NCBI GenBank assembly: GCA_043754515.1
Contig: JAYUUO010000174.1
Location: 1 to 34,243, forward strand
DNA from: Armatimonadota bacterium
GTDB lineage: Bacteria; Armatimonadota; Armatimonadia; Armatimonadales; Armatimonadaceae
Length of the DNA: 34,243 bases
Direction of reading: 5' to 3'
Part shown: positions 10,827-32,585 of the stretch, piece by piece
Position numbering within the stretch: position 1 is the stretch's first letter
How the letters are laid out: each line of letters starts with the position of its first letter
Notes under the pieces: generated by a model
Databases searched by the model: none
Told to the model about the DNA's origin: nothing
The model's input: only the letters and a program-made list of their open reading frames with translations
Position numbers and translations under genes: made by a program

Positions 10827-11453
10827 CTATCCGAACAACTCATCTACAGGCATCGTGAAGCCGGGGACGGCGGGTTCCGCGTCCGCCGTCTCACTGCGCT
10901 CGTAGACGGCGATTGGCGTTCGCGCACCGCCCGCTCTGGTGAACTTGCGAACCACGGCGTCGGATGCGAGCAGGTCAACATCCCAGACGACCTCGTTGCC
11001 GGCGGCGAAGTAATCGCCCCGCTTCGCGGTCATATCCCGCTTCGCGGCAACGCCGTAGTCGTTCTCGGAGCGCACTTCGGCGGCGAAGCGCGGCGCGGAC
11101 GGGAAGAACTTCATCCCGCTGTCGGTGCCTTCGTAGTACGCGGCGTCAGGCGCGAAAGACTGGCGGCGCGGCAGGTCACACAGGAACGCCTTGCCGTCTC
11201 CCACCGCGATCGTGGCAAGTTTTGCCGCTTTCACATGAGGGCGCAGGGCGAAAAATATCTCGTCTCCCGCAAAGCCCGGCTCTCGTTCCGTCATATCGAG
11301 TTGTACAATCTTTCCGCCCACTATCTCCGCTTCACCTTCCTCACGGCATAAGGCTTCGACAAGCTCGTCGGGGGTCATCGGTCTGGTCGCGTGACCGTTC
11401 ACGCCTACCCGCGCGGCGGGAATGTCGAGGGGATGGTCTGCAAGTGTCGGCAT
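10827..11453 (-). CDS. Uma2-family endonuclease-like protein (intact)
   Basis: EIVGGKIV, FAPDAAY, PRFAAEVRS, KRGDYFAAG, VVWDVD, EPAVPGF; GAGGAG SD. Confidence 0.85.
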   Translation of the reverse strand: MPTLADHPLDIPAARVGVNGHATRPMTPDELVEALCREEGEAEIVGGKIVQLDMTEREPGFAGDEIFFALRPHVKAAKLATIAVGDGKAFLCDLPRRQSFAPDAAYYEGTDSGMKFFPSAPRFAAEVRSENDYGVAAKRDMTAKRGDYFAAGNEVVWDVDLLASDAVVRKFTRAGGARTPIAVYERSETADAEPAVPGFTMPVDELFG

Positions 11454-14280: not shown

Positions 14281-14371
14281 AAGGCGTGCAATCGCGGGCA
14301 TACTGGGGAAACTGGTTGCGGTCGCCCTGTTCCCTACTAATAACCGTGTGGTGGCTAGAAGGATTCTCGCT

Positions 14372-15271
14372 ATGAAACATCTCGTACTAACTCTAGCGGC
14401 GACGCTCGCCGCCGCGCCCGTATTCGCCGCGCCGATCGTACCCAACACGTCCGGCTCGTCGTACACGTTCGACAATGCCAACAAGACGTACTTCGTTACG
14501 GCAGACACATCCCTGAGCGCCGACATATCCGGCACCGATCTGTATGTGGGCAAGACCAGCGCGTCGAACCTGACAACTCTCTCCGGTACCGCGACTTTCA
14601 CCGTTGGTGCCGGGGCGAACACGACCCGCCGCGTTCCAAACGTCAACGGTCTGGCAGGGTACGGCGTCCGAACCTTCGGAGCGTTCCGCGCCAATATCAA
14701 CGGCGGCAATATAAACAATCTGTTCGGCGAGGACAACAGCATAACGGCGATCACAGCTGGCAACATCACTGAAGCGACCTTTTCCAACAACGCGAACGTC
14801 ACGATGAATAACGATGGTGCCGCGATTAATAGTCTGTTCCTCGGCACGGCAGGCACTACACAAGCACCGACAGCGAATATCAGTGGCGGAGTGTTCACCT
14901 TGATGACACTGACAGCTAACTCCGTCGCGACAATAACAGGCGGTATCGTTCCGACCGTCCCACTCAGTGGCGTCTTCCTCTATGATACAGGCGCGCGGGC
15001 GAATATCTTCGGTACCGGTCTGGTCGCGACCTATGTCGGTCTCGCCGACAATCGCGACACGTTTAATGTCACAGGCGCGCTTCAGAATGGCACAGTATAC
15101 ACGTCATCCGCGCCGCTCCCTGTGAGCATACGCAACGAGACCGGCAAGTCGAACAACGTCCAGCGGCAGTTCACGCTGAATAACCCCGCCGTCGTGCCGG
15201 AGGCGGGTACGCTCGGCTTGATTCTGCCAGTGATCGGCATGATCGGCACTCTGATACGCCGCAAGAAATAG
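14372..15271 (+). CDS. PEP-CTERM-type surface protein
   Basis: Signal peptide, Asn/Thr/Gly-rich body, C-terminal VPEAGT-TM-RRKK. Confidence 0.88.
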   Translation: MKHLVLTLAATLAAAPVFAAPIVPNTSGSSYTFDNANKTYFVTADTSLSADISGTDLYVGKTSASNLTTLSGTATFTVGAGANTTRRVPNVNGLAGYGVRTFGAFRANINGGNINNLFGEDNSITAITAGNITEATFSNNANVTMNNDGAAINSLFLGTAGTTQAPTANISGGVFTLMTLTANSVATITGGIVPTVPLSGVFLYDTGARANIFGTGLVATYVGLADNRDTFNVTGALQNGTVYTSSAPLPVSIRNETGKSNNVQRQFTLNNPAVVPEAGTLGLILPVIGMIGTLIRRKK

Positions 15272-17937: not shown

Positions 17938-17955
17938 TGAACAGTGCGTCTTGTC

Positions 17956-17978
17956 TCGCCCTCCCGCCGGGAGGGCGA
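17956..17978 (+). terminator. Stem-loop ending the PEP-CTERM array
   Basis: TCGCCCTCCC-GCC-GGGAGGGCGA perfect 10-bp stem. Confidence 0.5.
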
Positions 17979-18012
17979 AATGGGGCGATATGCACTCTGG
18001 TACACTGAGGCC

Positions 18013-18612
18013 ATGAGTACCGCTATTCTCGAAGCCCCCACACGTGAAAAGGTCGTTTTCACCCCCCTGCCGCGCCGCCTTTCCGCCACCGACTACCTCG
18101 CGATGGACAGCGCGGCGGAGCGTAAGAGCGAGTTCGTCTTAGGAGATATTGTCCCCCTGGCAGACGCAACCCGAACACACGGGACGATCGCGGGCAACAT
18201 CGTCAGCGAACTGATTTACCAAGCCTGTGAACGCGACTGTGACGTGTTCTTCAGCGATACGCGGATTTGCGCGGGCAACTGTTACTACCCCGACGCTGGC
18301 ATCGTGTGCGGTAATTACCTCGTGGATACTCTGCACATTGACACGCTGACCAACCCCACGGTGCTTATTGAAGTCCTCTCTCCTTCCACTGAACATATAG
18401 ATCGCGGCATCAAACTGCGCGACTATATGCGCCTCGCCTCGCTCCGTGCTTATCTACTCGTGTCTCAGGACGCGCCCTGCGTCGAGCAGTATGAGCGCGA
18501 CGCTGACGGCGATTAGCGGTTCGCCGTCAGCGAGGGTATGGACGGAGCGGTCGAGATTCCTTCCGTGTCATGTCGCCTGCCTATGTCGGCGATTTACCGG
18601 CGCGTGACACGC
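18013..18612 (+). pseudogene. Uma2-family endonuclease with a premature TAG
   Basis: YYPDAGIVCG, NPTVLIEVLSPSTE..DRG.K..Y. The TAG at 18514-18516 falls where Trp is expected, and homology continues (IPSVSCRLPMSAIYRRV). The end coordinate is approximate. Confidence 0.8.
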
Positions 18613-19795: not shown

Positions 19796-20824
19796 TTACT
19801 TGCGCGAGGCGTCCCACATGTTGCGCTCCGGCTGTTTGACCGGGTCCGGGTTCGTCTGCCCCGGCTCGATGGCCTTTACATGGCCGTCCACGAAGCAGAT
19901 GTTCGACAGGCCGTTGTGCCGCGCGGTGACGGTGCCTTCTTTGCCCGCTGGCCACGCGGCCGTCGCCGTCCCGTCGGGGGATTCGCCAAGCCCGAAGAAC
20001 GCGTCCAGCTCGTCCGTGCCGACGAAGGGCGGGTAGCCGAGCACGCCCTGCCCGTCTTTGCCGCGCGCCTTGAGATCCGAGTTGTGCCGCTCCGCTAGCA
20101 GGATAGTCTCGGTCTGTCGGGGGATGTCGGAAAGACCTATGAGGCGAAACGGGGGCTTAATGCCGCCCCCCGCGTCGAACATCCAATCGCCGCCGAGTGG
20201 TACCGCGCCGTAGTGTCCGGTCTGGCGGTCGCGGATGTACGCGTTTGGGGCGTAGGACATGGAGGCGACTGGCGCGGGCCACCCGGCGTAAACCACGGAG
20301 TCCTCGCCGTCGGAGGGACAGACATAGATTTTGTACGTCTTCGCGTAAGGTTGGATCGCGTACGCCCACCCCTCGCCCCACCAGCCGCCGCCTTTTCCGC
20401 CCTTCCCTTTCGCAGGACATGCGAACGGGTGCGTCTCGTCGTTATCCTGTGCATACTGCGAGAAAGCTATACCCAGTTGCCGCATGTTGGATAGGCACGT
20501 CGTCTGTCGCGCCTTCTCCCGCGCCTGAGCGAACACGGGGAAAAGAATCGCAACGAGTAGGGCGATGATGGCTATCACGACGAGCAGTTCGATCAGCGTA
20601 AACGCGGCGGCCGCATTCGTAAACGCGGAGCGTTTGACGCGGGTGAACGCAACTCGCGCGGTACCACGGTATAGGGGGACGGCTCGGGCTGGCGACGGCA
20701 CGGGCGCGAGCCATGCCAGAGTGCGAAGTCCGGGGCTTCTAGAGGGGATAGGGCGAGTGCGTCCCAACACCGAAACCCAACATGTGGCAGGTTTCAACGA
20801 GAGGACACGCTTTCTTCGATGCAT
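19796..20824 (-). CDS. Prepilin-type N-terminal cleavage/methylation protein, DUF1559 / H-X9-DG family
   Basis: [59 protein letters not shown]. The true start is uncertain and probably downstream of 20824. Confidence 0.9.
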
Positions 20825-22605: not shown

Positions 22606-23454
22606 TCACTTACAGCCGTTCAAGCCATTAGTGAAGGTACCGTCGTTTGGCTCACGTCCGCCATACTTCTGCGCACCCCACCAGAAGCCCCAGTAGTTCC
22701 ACTCGTCACTACGACCTAGATCCGACCCACCGGGGAACAATTGGCTAAACGGGAACCACTTAGCGTGGCCATCGGCGAACATGATGACCGAGCCGTCCGT
22801 ATGACGCCCTTTTGCTTTCTGCCCTTTGCCACCCCACCAGGTAGGCCCAGGCCAGGTGGAGGTGATCGGGGGCCAATCAATCGCGAGTGCGGTTTGCGAG
22901 GCGGAACACATATCGGCCGAGTCGAGATCACGAGGAGGCATCTGACCATAAAACGATGGGTTGAACTTGTAATCCATCGGCGGGTAAACGTCGTTATAAT
23001 ACTTGAGGTCGCCCTGGGTGGACGCCCGAAGACCCTGGGTAGCGGGGTCGCTCAGATAGTCACCGTTGCCGTTATCATGTTGCTGGGCTTGTGTCGTTCC
23101 CATGTCGAACGCCGAGTCGGGACACTTGAATACGCCAAAGTTACTGACGTACGGCTGAAGTCGCGCGGCACCGATGTACGGTTCGTAACTGTTCCCATAA
23201 ATGTCGAGTAACACGACAGTGTTGTCATAGTCCTGGCAGTACTGCACGGTGGCTAAACCGATCTGCTTCATGTTAGACAAACACGCCGTCTGCCGCGCCT
23301 TAGAGCGGGCTTGGGCAAACACGGGGAACAGGATCGCGGCGAGGATCGCGATGATGGCGATCACAACGAGCAGTTCGATCAGGGTAAACCCACTTTGGGC
23401 AGCTCGGCCCGAGGTCATAGGTTGGCTACTACGCCGGTTCATAAACGATTTCAC
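22606..23454 (-). CDS. Prepilin-type N-terminal cleavage/methylation protein, DUF1559 / H-X9-DG family
   Basis: [72 protein letters not shown] before GTG 23454. Confidence 0.92.
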
Positions 23455-24901: not shown

Positions 24902-26557
24902 TTAATGCCCCGGTTCTACGGTTCTCGCTTCGGGTTCCGGCACACCGGGTGCCTTCTGTTCGTCAGGCAGTTTCGTCTCGCCCTCCAGTGCCGCCTCATC
25001 CGCGTCTTCCAATTTACGCTCATTTTTGAGCAAAGTCATTGGGGTGGGGGCGGCAAATTTTGGATACAGGCGGAAGAGCACCCCTTGTAAGCTAGCGGCT
25101 ATCGGTACCGCGACCAACATTCCCCATAGCCCGATCAGGTGGCCGCCCAGGAACAGCGAGAACATCGCGAGAATGGGGTGTATTCCCGCCCGCTCCCCGA
25201 CCACCTTCGGCATGACCACGTAGTCGAATATCTGGTTGATCGCGACTAGCCCCCCCGCCGCGAAAGCGGCCCCTGTCGGCCCGCACCCCGTCGCGAGTGC
25301 CGCTATAACGGCCAGCAAGAGGGTGGAGATCGCCCCGAGATAGGGCACTGAATAAAGGACGCCGGCGAGCACGCCGATCAGTAACCCGTAGACACGCAGA
25401 CCGGGGAAAAATAGACTCAAAGCAAGGAGATACACCATGCACGCGCCGCCGTACATGGAGCAGATGATGAGTAGTCCGCGCAAGTATTTGCCGAACACCT
25501 CACCGACGTCGAGCACCAGTACCTGGACAAACCTCCGGGCGTTACTCGGCAGAAAGAGATACAGCCGCGCCCGCAACCGGTCGAGATCTAGCAGTATGAA
25601 GATCGAGATGACAGGCACTAGCACGACGTCAATCAGTCGGCCAACGGAGGTTGCGATGATTCCAGTGAGGCCCGAAGCGGAAACCTTGAGGGCGTGTGAT
25701 ACCTGATCGCTATACTGCGCGGTGATTGTGTTCAGATTCTGGGGGAGTTTGATGGGGCCTATTTTGGGGTGTCCCGCGAGCCACTTGTCGACCTGTTTGC
25801 GCATCAGATCGAACCCTGATAGACCGTCGGCGGGCGGTTGCCAGGAGAGGCGAACCGAGCCGTCACCGGGGTGCGCCGAAACGTCACGGGGCGACTGCGG
25901 CGGTAGCGTCGCCGCGCCGCTACTGGCGGCGGGCGCGTCCGCGTTCGTCACGACGGCTTTGGCGGCGGTGCCCTCTTTCGTTGTGCCAGCAATATCCGCG
26001 CCGCGATGGGGTGTCGTAGCGGTCTCAGGTGAGGCGAACTGCGTGCCGTCCGCATTCGTGGCGTAGACGACGAACCGGTAGGGCGTGTCGTTGTCCAGAT
26101 TTTTGACCGTGAGGGTCGTATCGCCGACACCCTCGGCGACCGTAACGAACCTATCCGTGTCCCCTACGCTCCGGGTGATGACATAAGTCACGGGCGTGAA
26201 GAACTGGACCAGCCGTTGCGTCTGACCGATCAGCGCGGGACCCGCGTACGACATGACAGCGCCGAAGAGCGACAGGAACACGAAGAATACTAGGATAACA
26301 GCCCGCATCCGCTGGCCACTCGTGACACGCGCCTGCACCCAGCGCACGAGCGGTTCCAGCAATAGCGAAAGGATGATCGCACCGATGAACGGCGTCGCGA
26401 CCGCCAGCGTCGCGTCGAGTAGCTTCCAGCCGACGAAGAGCAAAAGCGCGAGCGTAGCGGTGCCGCAGGCGAAGAAAAATCCGTTACGGTACGCGTCGTC
26501 GGGACGCACTTGAGGCGTCCCAGCGTTGGGCGGGTCGGGAGCAGATGAAAGACTCAT
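24902..26557 (-). CDS. AI-2E (PerM/TqsA) family transporter with an inserted FN3-like segment
   Basis: PFIGAIILSLLLEPLV, IFILLD, YLRGLLI, VPYLGA, VVMPKVVGERAGIHP, GLWGMLVAVPIAA; about 125 extra residues after TM3. Confidence 0.9.
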   Translation of the reverse strand: MSLSSAPDPPNAGTPQVRPDDAYRNGFFFACGTATLALLLFVGWKLLDATLAVATPFIGAIILSLLLEPLVRWVQARVTSGQRMRAVILVFFVFLSLFGAVMSYAGPALIGQTQRLVQFFTPVTYVITRSVGDTDRFVTVAEGVGDTTLTVKNLDNDTPYRFVVYATNADGTQFASPETATTPHRGADIAGTTKEGTAAKAVVTNADAPAASSGAATLPPQSPRDVSAHPGDGSVRLSWQPPADGLSGFDLMRKQVDKWLAGHPKIGPIKLPQNLNTITAQYSDQVSHALKVSASGLTGIIATSVGRLIDVVLVPVISIFILLDLDRLRARLYLFLPSNARRFVQVLVLDVGEVFGKYLRGLLIICSMYGGACMVYLLALSLFFPGLRVYGLLIGVLAGVLYSVPYLGAISTLLLAVIAALATGCGPTGAAFAAGGLVAINQIFDYVVMPKVVGERAGIHPILAMFSLFLGGHLIGLWGMLVAVPIAASLQGVLFRLYPKFAAPTPMTLLKNERKLEDADEAALEGETKLPDEQKAPGVPEPEARTVEPGH

Positions 26558-26697
26558 TGCGCCTGTTATACCCCATCCGCATGTCCACTATCCGCCTGGC
26601 GTCTCGGACGGGAGGGCGGATCGCACCACGGCAGTGCGCCTGCAACGGTGGAAACGTCGGCTTCCGCACGTTACAATAAACGGTAGAAGCAAACCCT

Positions 26698-26946
26698 ATG
26701 TCAGTGGAAACGATCACCCACGACGAGTTCGACCGATGCCTTGATGACGCCAATGACCGCGCCGAATCCGAATTGCGGATTTTGGAGCAGGAGAACCAGA
26801 TGCCGCAACATCTCATCGAGCGGTACAAGTCCGTACAAGCGTCGCAAGCCGGTCTTGTCGAGTCCAACAAGCCGCGCTCGACTGAGTTGCGCCGACTGCT
26901 GTTGCAGTTCGCCGATAGTTCCCTCGAAGCCGCGCAAGCCCTGTGA
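26698..26946 (+). CDS. Small helical protein, upstream partner of HNH (antitoxin-like)
   Basis: 82-aa acidic helical ORF whose stop overlaps the HNH GTG start. Confidence 0.55.
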   Translation: MSVETITHDEFDRCLDDANDRAESELRILEQENQMPQHLIERYKSVQASQAGLVESNKPRSTELRRLLLQFADSSLEAAQAL

Positions 26947-27437
26947 TTCGTGCCGACGTTAAGCGGGTGGTACGCGCGACATATGCATTTGCGTGTGGAA
27001 CAAGACAAAACTTGTTTTGTCTGAACAATGGCGTTTCGGAAGCCGAGGTCGGGGCGGAACTCACCTACGATCATTTCGTCCCGCAGTCCAAAGGTGCCAC
27101 CGATGACGCGGACAATCTCGTCTACGCCTGTCATGCCTGCAACGAATTCAAGGGCGACTATTCCAACGGCGCGGCGCGGCTTTTGCACCCTCTGCGCGAC
27201 GATCTAATATGGCATTTACATAAGACGGCGACTGGCGAATGCGAAGCAGTAACTGCGTCCGGCACAATCGTCATCGCTTGCCTTCAACTCAACCGCGCGC
27301 CGACGCCGCAACAACGCTCTGGTCGCAACGGGGATACGGTTGCAGGAACAGCGCAAAGCGATTGTCGCCCGAGCTATCGCGTCGCTCGACCGACGCAAAC
27401 GGCGTGGAGACCGCCAGTGATAAAACTCTCTGTGTGA
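26943..27437 (+). pseudogene. HNH endonuclease, degenerate
   Basis: LTYDHFVPQSKG.TDD.DNLVYACHACNEFKGD, RLLHPLRDD. The first CxxC is disrupted by an insertion, and the C-terminus after LQLNR looks out of frame. Confidence 0.7.
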
Positions 27438-28198: not shown

Positions 28199-29353
28199 TC
28201 ACTGATACGAGTTACTGTAGTTCGAAACGTTGCTCGGAATAGAGACCACAGTTGAACTGTTCCGGATAAACGTACTGTCGTGTATCTTCGTATTGCTATG
28301 TCCGGCGCTCTCTATGAGCACCACGGCATCACTACAGTTCTCAAAGCGGTTGCCGTAGATGTCCATATTTTTCATGCCGCCGCCGACGAGACCGTTCCAG
28401 TAGTAAAGTCCGCGCCACACGTCTTTCACGATGTTGTTTTTGACCACGTTGTTGTCCAGCAGGTTGAAACTCGCCTCGTTCGAGATTTGAATGCCGACGC
28501 TCGCGTGACCGTTGCGATAATAGACCGTTTGGAACTCCCCATCCACCGTGTTGCCGTCCAATGTACAACCGACCGCATTGTTGAGATATATGTCCACGCT
28601 GAAATTGTCATGGACGCGGTTGCGACCGACCCAGTTGTAGCGACCGTAGCAACCGATGCCTTCACCCCAGTTGCCGTTGACATTGCAGTCTACCACCGTG
28701 TTGTTTCGCGTGTTCAGCGTGATCGCGGAATCCCATCCTTCGTTCCGAGTCGTTCCCTTGTTCACACGAACGTTGTTCCACACGTTGCATTTTTCGATGC
28801 GGTTGTTGTAGTTTTTCTGACTGTCGGACTCGTAGTCGTCCGCTCCCAGGTAGATCGCCTGCCTGTTGTTGTTATCGATGTTGCAGCCATAGATAGTTAC
28901 ATCGTGACCGTTCCATATCATGACCCCGGCAGCCTTAGAGTTCTTCACCTCCAACCACTTGACATCCACGAAAGAGCCGCCGATGCCGAGCAACTGGTTG
29001 GTGCCGGACACGCCCGAACCGTCCAGGACGGCCCACTCGTTGTCATACGAGCGGATCGTGATCCGGGCGTCACTACGCCCATTCTTGCCCACCCAGATGC
29101 CGCTTGTATACTTGTAGGTTCCGCCACGCAGTTTTATGGTATCACCGGCATTTGCCCAGTCGACCGCCTTCTGAAGCGAATAAAACGGGGTGCTTGTGTT
29201 ATAGGGGTTTGAACTGTTATCATCCCCGGTCGTTGCGACATACAACGTCGCCGCGTTCGCCGTGCCCACGAGCGAAGCAAGTAAAGCGATTGCTCCGGTG
29301 GCAACGGCGACACGCCGCGATATCGCGTTCCAGAAACTTTGACTGACATTCAT
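28199..29353 (-). CDS. Secreted right-handed parallel beta-helix protein (pectin-lyase-like fold), paralog B
   Basis: Signal peptide ending ANA, LYVATTGDD, TPF.SLQKA, AGDTIKLRGGTY, AVLDGS, Asn-ladder repeats, NWGEGIG; AGGAGG SD. Confidence 0.88.
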   Translation of the reverse strand: MNVSQSFWNAISRRVAVATGAIALLASLVGTANAATLYVATTGDDNSSNPYNTSTPFYSLQKAVDWANAGDTIKLRGGTYKYTSGIWVGKNGRSDARITIRSYDNEWAVLDGSGVSGTNQLLGIGGSFVDVKWLEVKNSKAAGVMIWNGHDVTIYGCNIDNNNRQAIYLGADDYESDSQKNYNNRIEKCNVWNNVRVNKGTTRNEGWDSAITLNTRNNTVVDCNVNGNWGEGIGCYGRYNWVGRNRVHDNFSVDIYLNNAVGCTLDGNTVDGEFQTVYYRNGHASVGIQISNEASFNLLDNNVVKNNIVKDVWRGLYYWNGLVGGGMKNMDIYGNRFENCSDAVVLIESAGHSNTKIHDSTFIRNSSTVVSIPSNVSNYSNSYQ

Positions 29354-29383
29354 TGGATAAGCCTCCTATCGGCAAGGTTGATT

Positions 29384-29402
29384 GCGACGTCCTACGCCGC
29401 CC
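29384..29402 (-). promoter_or_regulatory. GGA-loop hairpin in the leader of paralog B
   Basis: GGGCGGCG-TAGGA-CGTCGC on the minus strand. Confidence 0.55.
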
Positions 29403-29442
29403 AACAAGAAAATAAGAACGGTCAGGGAAGCACCTTTATCTT

Positions 29443-30618
29443 TCATTGATAATAGTCGCTATACACGCTCAGTCCAGACCCCGAAAATGATGTGGAGTTA
29501 GTGCCTCCGTTCGCTTTGAAAGTATTATCGTGGATTTTACTTCCGCTATGGTCGGCGGCATCCGTCTCGAAGGCTTTCGTCAATGACTTTTCGATGTAGT
29601 TACCGAATATGTCAGTGTTCTTGAAGCCACCACCGTTGTCGTAGTTGCCGTAGTAAATCCCTCGGGAACATTTGTAGATTTTGTTGTTCTTTATTGTGTT
29701 GTAGTTCAGGGGGTTATATAGGCTGTACTCGCTCTCGTTGCCCATCTGGATTCCCGACGCCGGCGCATTGTACCGGTAGTATTCACCCCAATACTGGGTA
29801 TCGATGATGTTGTTGTCCACTGTCACATAGGTCGCATTGTCCAGATAGATATTCACGCTGTAGTTGTCGTGGACCCGGTTGTACCCGACATATCCGCCGC
29901 TTGTGACAGCGATGGCTATGCCTTCGCCCCAGTTCGCGTTGATGTCGCAGTTTTTAACATTGGTGTTGCGGGCATACAGACTGACCACGGCGGCGGGCCA
30001 GCCCCCGGTTAAAATCCTAGCCTGGTTGTTGCGGCAGTTGTTGTAGACTGTACAACCGTCGATAGTATTGTTGATGCAGGGCGTCGATGACAAGCTGTAG
30101 TTGTTAAACCCCACGTAAATCCCGGATGCCTGGCAGCTGCTGACGTTCACTCCTTGGATGATATTATTGCCACCTCCCCAAATGGTTATGCCGACTCCCT
30201 GGGAGTTTTTCACTTCCATTGAGCGCAAGCACACGTATGAGCCACCTATACCGATAACGTTACCGGTAGAATTGCGACTCGACCCGTCCAGAACCGCCCA
30301 TTCGTTATCATAAGATTGAATATAGATCGGTTGGCTGCTTGTTCCGCTTTTACTAATCCATTGCTCATCCGTATATTTGTATGTCCCCCCGCGCAACTTG
30401 ATCACATCGCCAGCGTTCGCCCATTGCGAAGCCTTCGAAAGTGATCGGAAAGGCGTGTTGGTGTTATAGGGGTTAGAACTATTGTCATCACCGTTTGTAG
30501 CAACATACAATGTTGCTGCACTTGCCGCCCCTGATAACGCCGCGCACAGAATAACCATGCCAGCGACCACGGCGACGCGCCGCGTCATCATCTCGAACAA
30601 ACCTTGACTGACTTTCAT
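29443..30618 (-). CDS. Secreted right-handed parallel beta-helix protein, paralog A
   Basis: Same N-terminal motifs as 28199-29353, NWGEGIA, NRVHDNYSVNIYLDNA; both end in YQ. Confidence 0.88.
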   Translation of the reverse strand: MKVSQGLFEMMTRRVAVVAGMVILCAALSGAASAATLYVATNGDDNSSNPYNTNTPFRSLSKASQWANAGDVIKLRGGTYKYTDEQWISKSGTSSQPIYIQSYDNEWAVLDGSSRNSTGNVIGIGGSYVCLRSMEVKNSQGVGITIWGGGNNIIQGVNVSSCQASGIYVGFNNYSLSSTPCINNTIDGCTVYNNCRNNQARILTGGWPAAVVSLYARNTNVKNCDINANWGEGIAIAVTSGGYVGYNRVHDNYSVNIYLDNATYVTVDNNIIDTQYWGEYYRYNAPASGIQMGNESEYSLYNPLNYNTIKNNKIYKCSRGIYYGNYDNGGGFKNTDIFGNYIEKSLTKAFETDAADHSGSKIHDNTFKANGGTNSTSFSGSGLSVYSDYYQ

Positions 30619-30647
30619 TTGTTGAATCCCTCCATTGGGTAATTAAT

Positions 30648-30667
30648 GGCGGCGTCCTTCGCCGCCC
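30648..30667 (-). promoter_or_regulatory. GGA-loop hairpin in the leader of paralog A
   Basis: GGGCGGCG-AAGGA-CGCCGCC on the minus strand. Confidence 0.55.
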
Positions 30668-30679
30668 GATATGGATATG

Positions 30680-31354
30680 CTAAGGGATAGATTCTAGCGT
30701 TGCGTCATCCACCCATAGCGTTGTGCCTTCTTCAGCCGTCGTAAACATGACAAGCACATGTTGCTTGGTCGGGACACTCGCGTCTACCTCGAAGTGTTGC
30801 CATTGCGAGTTTAGCACCACTGATTTCTCGCCATAGGACGTGAACGGCTCTTCGGTCCTTCTGATCTTGATCACGGCGTACAGGGCACGTGATGCTCGTG
30901 CCCATATAGCGAAGCGATACTTTCCCTTGTTTGATATGTTAATCCCTTGTATAAACTGAACCGTGCTTTCGATTCCGGCTTCTTTGAACGGCACAACTCG
31001 TTTCACTTCGATCCTCTGAGATGTTTCGCCACTATGGGCATTAGCGGAGTCGATCCCATAATTCACGTTAACCGCGCCCCATTCCGAGTTATCACTCCAG
31101 CCAGAGGCGACCTCGCCGCGAATCACCGCATTTCTGGGTGCCGGTAATTTCGCAACCGCATCAAACGTGTCTTCCATTGCCCCGTTTCGTAAAAGTGAAA
31201 CGACCTCGTGAGAAGTGACTGAAGTGCTCGCCGATGCAACTTTTTCTGCCGCTTCAGGTTGTTTGATCGTGATGTTGCGGACGGCGAGTGCCGCCAGGGT
31301 CGCGATGCAAACCGCGACTACGGCGACGCCGCCCGACTTGAGAATGATCTTCAT
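30680..31354 (-). CDS. Membrane-anchored/exported carbohydrate-binding-module-like protein (CBM4/9-like)
   Basis: N-terminal hydrophobic segment, [43 protein letters not shown]. Confidence 0.75.
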
Positions 31355-31560
31355 TTAGAATAGTCTCGCTGTGTAGAACATATTGGGTTCGACAGACACG
31401 CCGCCTGCCTCGCTTTTTCTCGTGCCTGTGCAAATACAGGAAATAGTGTCGCAGCTAAAATAGCAATTATTGCGATAACAACTAAAATCTCAATTAGGGT
31501 GAAGCCATGGTGCTTCGTTGATACAACCGGGCGTCGGACGCCTTTGAAATCCGTGTACAT
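31351..31560 (-). pseudogene. Internally deleted DUF1559 prepilin-like gene (N-terminal pilin helix only)
   Basis: [40 protein letters not shown] then a stop after 11 aa. Another frame retains NMFYTARLF*, resembling the NMWDASRK* end of 19796-20824. Confidence 0.75.
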
Positions 31561-31583
31561 ATTCTTACTTTCGTGGCGGCAAC

Positions 31584-32585
31584 CTATGCCGTATCTCCCG
31601 TCAGCAATGATACAGACAGGACCGTTTCTGTCGGTGCTTCCCCGCCATTTATCTGGTGTATAAGTTGTTCGATGGCTGTTCTCCCAGCATCGCGCCAGGG
31701 AACGCGCACCGAAGTCACGCGGTATTTCGGCGGGTCATAGGGTTCAATGCCGTCGAACCCGACGATTGCCAGATCCTCGGGGACCCGCCAGCCGACCGCG
31801 AGACAACCGGCTAGGGCCGATTTTGCCCAATCGTCGCTCCAGCAAACTACCGCCGTCGGACGTTCAGGGTTGTCGGGCGAGAGAATCGACATCTCCTCAT
31901 CCGTCAACTCATCCGTCGGCGAAACACTCACCGTAATCGTCATTCCGAGTCGGAGTGCCGATTCTTGTAAACTGCTAAGCCGACGCTCGGCGGCGGCATG
32001 ATAGCGGGCGAGGCGCCGGTAAAGGATGCGGCGATGGTTTTTCGCGTACAGATACTCCGCTACCAGTTTCGACCCTTCGTTGTCGTCCGCAATAATGGAT
32101 GGCAGACTAGCGGCACCATCGGCGAGCAAAACGACGGGTAGATGGGAACGCGATAATCGCTCAATGAGCGGGTGGTTCTCCGGCGCGAAAAGGGCAAGTC
32201 CGTCAATCTTGCCGGAGGCTAACTCAGCATAAATATCTTCCACGGATGCGCCCCGGAAAGCACCGTGCAGTAACAAATCTTTCCCGTGCTTCTCGCATCC
32301 CTCCTGAAGCCCGGAGATAATCTCGGTGGTGAACTGATTCCGTAGCGAGATGAAGCCGTACCCACTGTAGTAGCCGATAATGTTCGTTCGCTTCGCTCGT
32401 AGCGACCGCGCTATAGCGGAGGGGTGATAGCCTAATTCGGCGACCACCGACAGTATTCTTTCCCGTGTGATGGCAGAGACACGAGTATTAGAGCGCGATC
32501 CGTTCACCACGGATGATACCGTCACCTTACTCACCCCGGCATGGCGAGCAACGTCTTCGAGAGTAGGTGCGGTCTTCGCTTCCAT
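31584..32585 (-). CDS. LacI-family transcriptional regulator
   Basis: [58 protein letters not shown]. Confidence 0.94.

Follow-up and report, generated by a model that had tools for sequence, protein, structure and literature searches.

Escherichia coli TqsA (7NB6) is a close counterpart of the protein analyzed here and belongs to the same AI-2E (UPF0118/PerM) family. Both of its termini are cytoplasmic, and helices H3 (residues 61-109) and H4 (118-164) each have a hydrophilic periplasmic half. The loop connecting H3 and H4 is a subunit contact on the rim of a periplasmic basin (PMC9475539). Another described group of the family comprises UPF0118 Na+(Li+)/H+ antiporters, for which the signature E179-R182-K215-Q217-D251-R292-R293-E296-K298-S307 has been reported (PMC7221264).

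The fibronectin type III (FN3) domain has the canonical strand order A-B-C-C'-E-F-G. Anastellin is a C-terminal FN3 fragment without strands A-B. The title of PDB entry 5j6z describes anastellin with FN3 strands A and B, i.e., a fragment completed by A and B strands from elsewhere; this is a two-chain fragment complex of animal fibronectin, whereas the case described below is a permuted gene. The "central domain" of tandem tenascin FN3 repeats is a permuted misfold of these repeats, and its K=28 permutant, cut in the B-C loop, matches the swapped dimer 2RBL. Among six simulated permutants, K=28 is the most stable (2.8 kcal/mol, versus 8.1 for the native domain) and is kinetically rare (0.9%) (PMC4862688). 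Engineered circularly permuted FN3 (cpFN3) monobodies fold and bind, with an 18-aa linker joining the old ends across about 36 A (10.1101/2022.08.26.505460). A literature search outside subscription journals and the CIRPIN dataset found neither a natural permuted FN3 nor an FN3-bearing AI-2E protein. The only permuted FN3 forms in the literature searched were engineered proteins and misfolds of tandem repeats, the latter from simulations or single-molecule work. The main text of the CIRPIN paper (PMC13552848) contains no fibronectin, FN3 or immunoglobulin, and its supplements or database could hold the family described here.

The window, i.e., the whole 34,243-nucleotide stretch of DNA analyzed from an Armatimonadota bacterium, carries on its minus strand an ORF (24902-26557) for an AI-2E-family membrane protein of 551 aa. 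PF01594 (AI-2E_transport) matches this protein in two stretches (E 1.2e-48; 166.4 bits against a cut-off of 34.3), and fn3 (PF00041) matches residues 125-181 (profile positions 32-83 of 84; E 1.1e-7; 32.4 bits against a cut-off of 25). Comparison with insert-free orthologs set the insert at residues 123-246 (124 aa; window 25820-26191). The initial annotation had recognized an FN3 insertion at 25823-26194, one codon off; it had also read the quoted segments as the C-terminal half of an FN3 domain, an Ala/Thr linker of about 35 aa and the N-terminal half, and both this order and the linker are borne out. The features are as follows.

24902-26557, minus strand: AI-2E (UPF0118/PerM) family membrane protein with an internal permuted FN3 (PF01594; Foldseek match to TqsA, 7nb6)
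26192-26557, minus strand: host N-terminal part, residues 1-122, with H1, H2 and the membrane part of H3, ending F-F-T-P
26009-26191, minus strand: residues 123-183, FN3 strands C, C', E, F and G, which in a canonical FN3 make up the C-terminal two thirds
25904-26008, minus strand: Ala/Thr/Gly-rich linker, residues 184-218 (35 aa), predicted to be disordered (pLDDT <50 over most of it)
25820-25903, minus strand: residues 219-246, FN3 strands A and B, which in a canonical FN3 make up the N-terminal third
24902-25819, minus strand: host C-terminal part, residues 247-551, with the predicted periplasmic rest of H3, H4, TMH5, HP1, TMH6, HP2 and the tail
26565-26572, minus strand: -10-like promoter element (putative), 7 nt before the ATG, a genome-wide pattern

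The host C-terminal part covers PF01594 positions 89-320, and F120 and P122 of the N-terminal part are kept in all 29 insert-bearing proteins compared. The -10-like pattern occurs at 339 sites in the window's genome, with ATG enriched 6-10 nt downstream; it supports the AI-2E start at 26557, its promoter function being putative. No SigB-type -35 element was evident upstream of the window's AI-2E gene.

On its own, the second half of the insert is a weak FN3 match: residues 222-244 correspond to fn3 positions 2-24, with a Pfam E value of 0.053 when 28 residues ending at 245 were scanned. We built a 92-position FN3 profile from 300 natural repeats of 148 multi-repeat proteins; these had been retrieved with the insert as query, which favors this FN3 subtype, not the permuted order. 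The halves of the window's insert matched this profile at positions 36-88 (30.9 bits) and then at 2-27 (26.4 bits), and the only part uncovered was about positions 28-35, the B-C loop. In place of the canonical order, which the insert does not show, both halves were present as C-C'-E-F-G, linker, A-B in 20 of 20 inserts scored, some of them near-duplicates. None of 2000 shuffled sequences reached the real score for either segment (maxima of 12.0 and 6.9 bits against 33.7 and 28.5), which speaks against chance resemblance. A single-domain PDB chain, 2ed7, also aligned to the insert in swapped order, although weakly (E 0.056). The FN3 signature residues W239 (strand B), Y125 (strand C) and L154 (Leu-x-Asn/Pro motif) are present in 29 of 29 proteins, and Y160 (strand F) in 28. 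At the sequence level, the insert thus has the arrangement of a natural circular permutant: its two segments complement each other without overlap, stand in swapped order and have become fixed in a lineage.

The cut point and topology are those of the tenascin K=28 misfold and of 2RBL (PMC4862688). In tenascin they belong to a simulated misfold or to an altered-loop crystal dimer, whereas here they are a gene-encoded, conserved architecture. The cpFN3 monobodies differ in being artificial and soluble and in their cut, which lies in the C-D loop at position 42 (10.1101/2022.08.26.505460); the present cut is in the B-C loop, within a membrane protein.

The same architecture was found in relatives. 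At E <=8e-19, an insert profile detected it in 13 of 41 related genomes: that of the window, and 12 of 24 further genomes of its family (f1). These 13 genomes span 7 genera and have the insert at the same site; the orthologs share 39-61% overall identity. Matches in 16 sister-family genomes reached at most 46 bits and were mostly in long repeat ORFs. When 401 genomes sampled from the phylum were searched with a single query, the insert was matched in 10 of 23 other f1 genomes and in 0 of 377 others; since this query missed one genome that has the insert (G012), the latter figure means "not found with this query". The source names of the homologs are mostly Armatimonadota, and some labels conflict. 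A search for the permuted unit in other hosts, resting on weak evidence, gave 58 longer proteins: 3 AI-2E orthologs and 55 others, nearly all of which have FN3-type Pfam matches. The ESM Atlas returned FN3-type matches only, with scores <=0.81, and these are leads only.

The window's genome is a 313-contig assembly, and no single contig compared with the gene spans it whole, which would fit a chimeric assembly, named as a concern in the initial annotation. A chimera is contradicted by the 12 other genomes and further database proteins with the same architecture, and by contigs of another study (run X5) that bridge both host-insert junctions; X6 and X19 contigs bridge the C-terminal one, and no joints or loose ends are listed in the bridging contigs. 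The GC and GC3 values of the insert (0.66/0.76) match those of the host parts (0.63/0.76 and 0.59/0.71). A chimera or a chance resemblance is therefore of negligible probability, and artefact is already refuted by the orthologs: the permuted FN3 insertion is real, conserved and well supported. The sole RNA-labelled run contained one 256-nt contig, which is not proof of transcription.

Within the family, the two halves of the domain go together. Among 61 homologs (a set that holds near-duplicates of sampled loci), 24 have both halves, 37 have neither and none has one. All 29 proteins of a non-redundant set have Y125, L154, F162 and P183 in the first half and L237, W239 and P242 in the second, and core residues of both halves are kept even when more than 200 residues separate them. 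The junctions are equally constant. From the host Pro to the strand-C Tyr there are 3 residues, and from the strand-B Trp to the host Ser 8, in all 28 proteins measured by sequence pattern; the twenty-ninth (P0170), which the pattern did not catch, agrees when inspected by eye. Insert length nevertheless ranges from 98 to 320 aa, and all of this variation lies in the Pro/Ser/Thr/Ala/Glu-rich linker, which in some orthologs is Pro/Ser/Thr-rich and exceeds 200 residues. By mean pairwise identity, A-B (0.51) is on a par with the host parts (0.49-0.57), whereas C-G is at 0.43 and the linker at only 0.18.

Together, the junction distances give 3 + 8 = 11 residues, a B-C spacing that ranks second among natural repeats (51 of 236), behind 14 (126 of 236). 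Insert-free orthologs have 25 residues where the window protein has 150, so the two junctions would be neighbors in the ancestral helix. Rigid junctions combined with a free inner linker would be expected of a single folded domain with the host chain running through its B-C loop.

The insert also suggests how it came about. Bacterial tandem FN3 repeats (PF00041) carry the same motifs as its two halves, and the insert is collinear with a slice across two repeats; it differs from them in being one domain's worth of sequence, permuted, with the B-C loop replaced by the host and an inner linker that is usually much longer. In natural tandem repeats the strand-C-to-strand-B distance has a median of 82 residues (5-95% range, 75-91), compared with 88-310 in the inserts. 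The shortest orthologs, at 88-92, are only 6-10 above the natural median; by eye, about 14 residues separate their strands G and A, compared with the 18-aa linker of the engineered cpFN3 (10.1101/2022.08.26.505460). On a profile of 300 natural repeat pairs, the two shortest inserts (L008 and L013) gave one unbroken match at positions 39-124, which begins in strand C of the first repeat and ends in strand B of the second; they scored 46 and 45 bits there, compared with 36 and 34 on a single-repeat profile. This test stands in for a search with reordered halves, and the gain of about 10 bits, together with the complementary and non-overlapping halves, agrees with the FN3 assignment of the initial annotation, as does the unbroken match with its suggestion that a segment across two tandem repeats was captured in frame.

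Among the 150 best library matches listed for the insert, 148 are long multi-repeat proteins and the other 2 are AI-2E orthologs; some multi-repeat proteins match the insert across a repeat junction. Tandem FN3 ORFs are common in the sister family. A donor in the window's own genome was considered and rejected: its two other fn3 matches are weak single domains with the usual order of the profile. The multi-repeat proteins retrieved did not point to a specific donor. Overall, the insert very likely arose from a tandem-FN3 surface protein, as an in-frame slice that starts at strand C of a repeat and stops at strand B of the following one.

To follow gain and loss, we used a tree of the host parts only (46 rows, 349 columns, LG+G4), which left out the insert and its flanking motifs, as well as near-duplicates and part of the outgroup rows. 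The insert occurs in three starred groups on a backbone without resolution; the groups were named once a first tree had been seen, and P0179 was added later, after the host-only tree. Four insert-free proteins (L012, L014, P0176 and P0177) are unplaced, and one insert group joins insert-free proteins with support of 100/99. Two of the latter look like deletion scars, since they keep both flanking motifs without FN3, L038 around a Pro-rich stretch and P0174 around 4 residues. A clade of insert-bearing proteins only was rejected (p-AU 0.005), and a clade of insert-bearing and scar forms was not (p 0.22). The simplest account would be one gain, probably with later losses in some genera, and the domain was apparently lost in at least two. 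The scar forms could instead represent the pre-insertion state if the insert spread by recombination.

The membrane location of the insert can be judged from TqsA. Residues 52-121 align weakly with TqsA 32-99 (N-terminal part, 6.9 bits), and residues 284-488 with TqsA 122-319, so that the insert site maps to about TqsA 99-100. The loop before H3 has 4 Lys/Arg and 0 acidic residues, the loop after H4 has 7 and 4, and the insert is net acidic (9 Lys/Arg versus 14 acidic). By analogy with TqsA, the insert is placed with high confidence in the periplasm, in the periplasmic half of H3. An extracytoplasmic module, as initially annotated, is in line with this placement; its position "after TM3" was roughly right, the site being helix H3 (TqsA nomenclature) at its exit from the membrane.

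AlphaFold2 predicted the same seven strands for the insert in two settings. With the full protein (18 rows), block pLDDT in the insert was 74-86, residues 190-216 were disordered and overall pTM was 0.40; this model gives no predicted position of the domain on the transporter. With the insert alone (13 rows), mean pLDDT was 79 and pTM 0.71, with values of 85-96 for C-G and 89-96 for A-B, and four of five models had a mean pLDDT of 78-79. The C-G half accounts for half of the 131 residues modeled and 27 residues have pLDDT <50, so a pTM of 0.71 implies that A-B is placed on C-G. From pLDDT and pTM, the A-B hairpin is likely to pack against C-G of its own chain, with the proviso that modeling one chain would give a closed domain whether or not the natural form is swapped. 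The initial annotation had made its reading depend on a beta-sandwich being predicted, and a seven-strand beta domain appears both in the full protein and in the insert alone.

The top Foldseek match of the full model was TqsA (7nb6; E 3.5e-4), though with an rmsd of 16.7 over the whole model. Strands C-G of the insert model superpose on FN3 C-G with an rmsd of about 1.6-2 A over 57-70 residues. In Foldseek and VIA searches with the insert model, the aligned part was C-G only (residues 1-72; best Z 6.2, rmsd 1.8 over 65), and neither returned a chain matching the whole permuted order; since all alignments returned were sequential, these searches have no say on the existence of a solved permutant.

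These data bear on the view that the insert is a tolerated relic, in which C-G forms a partial sandwich, A-B is a mere connector, and there is neither a stable seven-strand domain nor a selected role. The apparent losses, the bare Pro-rich stretch tolerated at the site in L038 and the weak Pfam score of A-B would fit such a relic. It is at odds with the invariance of L237, W239 and P242 in strand B, with the absence of single halves from all 61 proteins and with the pLDDT of the A-B strands, and we regard it as very improbable.

The initial annotation left open whether the permuted domain closes within one chain or by exchange between subunits. In the swapped arrangement, the A-B hairpin would complete the C-G strands of a neighboring subunit, five FN3 domains would staple the oligomer rim, and the exchange could regulate the scaffold. 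Precedents exist: the H3-H4 loop of TqsA is a subunit contact on the rim (PMC9475539), a tenascin FN3 dimer swapped at the B-C loop is known (2RBL; PMC4862688), and the PDB holds, judging from the title of 5j6z, a complex of a C-G fragment with A and B strands supplied separately. Short linkers could also disfavor self-closure, and long ones allow reach. However, with 3 and 8 residues in 28 of 28 proteins, the junctions to the host are short and constant, and they join residues that are adjacent in insert-free orthologs, and a swap would have to bridge a side of the TqsA rim pentagon, about 39 A, which by our own estimate is near the limit of 11 fully extended residues. A complex prediction with two insert copies scored 0.01 (mark 0.42), which is no answer and counts neither for nor against swapping. 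The fixed, short junctions favor folding within the chain without proving it, and we keep swapping as an unlikely alternative.

What the host protein transports is probably neither AI-2 nor, by the known signature, Na+/H+, as judged from sequence. LuxS, the AI-2 synthase, was found in none of the 41 genomes, including the 31 that are at least 90% complete (a control was matched in 5 of 14), so the substrate is probably not AI-2. The polar pocket proposed for AI-2 in TqsA consists of Y196, K200, N234, P237, N238 and E280, of which only the Tyr and the Pro are kept; the counterparts of K200, N234, N238 and E280 are L/M, Y/F, Y/F and M/V/T/Y, respectively. AI-2 export was therefore set aside, with no LuxS in 41 genomes and four of six proposed contacts replaced. 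The protein thus shares with TqsA its family, its predicted helix layout and the HP1 Pro (P405, equivalent to TqsA P237), R83 and D324, which are kept in 29 of 29 proteins, and differs in its replaced AI-2 contacts, in the lack of LuxS among these genomes and in an FN3 insert of 98-320 aa in the predicted periplasmic part of H3. Compared with the antiporters of the same family (PMC7221264), E179, R182, K215 and K298 have counterparts in D324, R327, R360 and K451, whereas Q217, D251, R292, R293 and E296 are replaced by L362, Y402, D445, Y446 and M449 (all mapped by eye, S307 unmapped). On the basis of these five replacements, UPF0118-type Na+/H+ antiport was also set aside. The clade has an invariant polar set of its own, Y358, R360, N441 and D445.

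We also surveyed gene neighborhoods at 18 loci, calling 124 neighboring ORFs and scanning 69. At 12 of 15 same-family loci, the AI-2E gene lies just downstream of YtxH and/or a cassette of STAS, HATPase_c_2 (kinase-like anti-sigma) and sigma-70 genes. The cassette usually follows mnmA; one of the 12 loci has an intervening gene, and YtxH in two rests on BLAST. Of the remaining same-family loci, two belong to the window's genus and have other neighbors, and one runs into a contig edge; the 3 loci of the sister family also have a different context. In the window's genome the cassette is on another contig (C213), followed by other genes, and the context is absent at the AI-2E gene in the window's genus. 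We take this neighborhood to be a general-stress cluster of the SigB/SigF type, and we infer that the host gene ancestrally belonged to such a cluster. Since 4 of these 12 loci lack the insert, the gene context belongs to the host gene.

Alternatively, the permuted domain could be a module for specific binding or sensing which, by responding to a cell-wall glycan, a partner protein or envelope strain, controls the transporter as part of a general-stress system. Its retention in 7 genera at the identities given above, an A-B half as conserved as the host, and the YtxH and/or cassette context at 12 of 15 loci are compatible with such a module. Yet the conserved insert positions, read by eye, are mostly the ordinary FN3 repeat consensus, and no conserved surface patch was seen beyond it. 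Moreover, the B-C pole, home of the usual monobody binding loops, is occupied by the host; the context is common to 4 insert-free orthologs and absent in the window's genus; and the domain is missing in close relatives. A sensing module is accordingly rated as rather improbable. Three observations of this study went unmentioned in the initial annotation: the linker variation beyond 200 residues, the apparent loss in some genera and AI-2 as an unlikely substrate.

The explanation we prefer, and consider probable, is that a two-repeat slice with its cut in the B-C loop folds within one chain as a permuted FN3 on the periplasmic rim and serves as a structural clasp that closes off the linker loop and is itself dispensable. 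Two neighboring repeats of a tandem FN3 array would have contributed the slice, which would have been captured once, in frame, into H3. A cut in the B-C loop would leave the new ends side by side, so that the domain could be spliced between neighboring residues of H3 while the helix stays in register. Each subunit would thereby gain a periplasmic beta-sandwich, whose far pole displays the disordered linker as a loop; if the protein is a pentamer, as assumed from TqsA and YdiK, five FN3 knobs would ring the periplasmic basin. The role would be accessory, i.e., stiffening scaffold helices and carrying the Pro/Ser/Thr-rich loop toward the cell wall, and not substrate recognition. Because the conserved positions are mostly FN3 consensus and relatives do without the domain, a structural or tethering role is likelier than ligand recognition, and we give the accessory role an even chance of being correct.

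A more speculative version, which we think has a small chance of being right, makes the domain a working latch. H3 would pass through the B-C loop, so that the scaffold changes shape when the A-B hairpin detaches or is exchanged between subunits, and a general-stress transporter would be gated in this way. The pull on the hairpin would come through the Pro/Ser/Thr tether, which would face the cell wall and is up to about 240 residues long. If this were true, a known misfolded state of tandem FN3 repeats would have been turned into a mechanical switch.

Circular permutation and domain insertion are both known processes, FN3 is among the most studied folds, and the Armatimonadota insert would be a natural case of FN3 permutation. 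In a single step, a tandem array can yield a domain ready for insertion, because a slice cut across two repeats has its ends close to each other; the ends of a canonical FN3 lie about 36 A apart and do not allow this. The insert family provides a natural test set with one cut point, that ranked most stable by simulations, with linkers from about 14 to more than 200 residues, insert-free relatives and apparent deletion scars. For AI-2E proteins, it marks a permissive and predicted periplasmic site, which may serve as a handle for fusions or for cryo-EM in a region unresolved in YdiK.

Some AI-2E orthologs lack the FN3 insert and retain the host residues that border it. Both flanking motifs are kept in the ortholog of genome G018 (L038:930-2267), where they enclose roughly 30 residues rich in Pro and Ser, and in the protein P0174, where they enclose 4 residues; these two forms are likely deletion scars of the FN3 insert. 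Another ortholog without the insert, P0175 (L012:466-2352, genome G014), appears to carry in its place an N-terminal extension of about 230 residues with an Ala/Thr/Pro-rich stretch. Tandem FN3 arrays, the proposed source of the insert, occur in the sister family: genome G038 has 87 matches, spread over many contigs, and an open frame of 7707 aa lies near position 1676000 of G035:C1. Such FN3-rich genomes are a possible donor pool.

The divergent upstream neighbours of the AI-2E gene in the window are an 82-aa ORF and an HNH-domain ORF, the latter looking degenerate at both ends when read by eye. In relatives this position is taken by a uracil-DNA glycosylase gene or by a stress cassette. This cassette (YtxH, STAS, anti-sigma kinase-like and sigma-70 genes) is conserved in the window's family, where it mostly follows mnmA. 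The window's own genome has it too, but apart from mnmA and apart from the AI-2E gene. At window position 26656, a contig from sequencing run X5 has 23 additional letters copying neighbouring sequence: a related strain carries a short tandem duplication at this point.

Neighbourhood features
26698-27437, plus strand: 82-aa ORF and overlapping HNH-domain ORF (PF01844, E 8e-8)
L090, L094, L095, L102: stress cassette upstream of the AI-2E ortholog
G000:C213:15821-17988: stress cassette, window's genome
L103:737-1141: PemK/MazF-type toxin-antitoxin gene directly downstream of the G011 AI-2E ortholog

Elsewhere in the window, the GC content of 28199-32585 is 0.50-0.54 versus about 0.61. The Pfam scan gave the following.

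28199-32585, minus strand: two similar beta-helix proteins, weak CBM-like ORF, LacI regulator
19796-20824, 22606-23454: two prepilin-type DUF1559 genes
14348-15271: PEP-CTERM, weak match
10827-11453, 17944-18516: two Uma2 nuclease-like genes

The start of the AI-2E gene is preceded by a motif also found genome-wide.

26565-26572, minus strand: -10-like element before the AI-2E ATG

Several AI-2E orthologs have a comparable element. The window's genome contains 339 sites with this motif and, because an ATG stands 6-10 nt downstream at many of them, near-leaderless transcripts are suggested for this organism.
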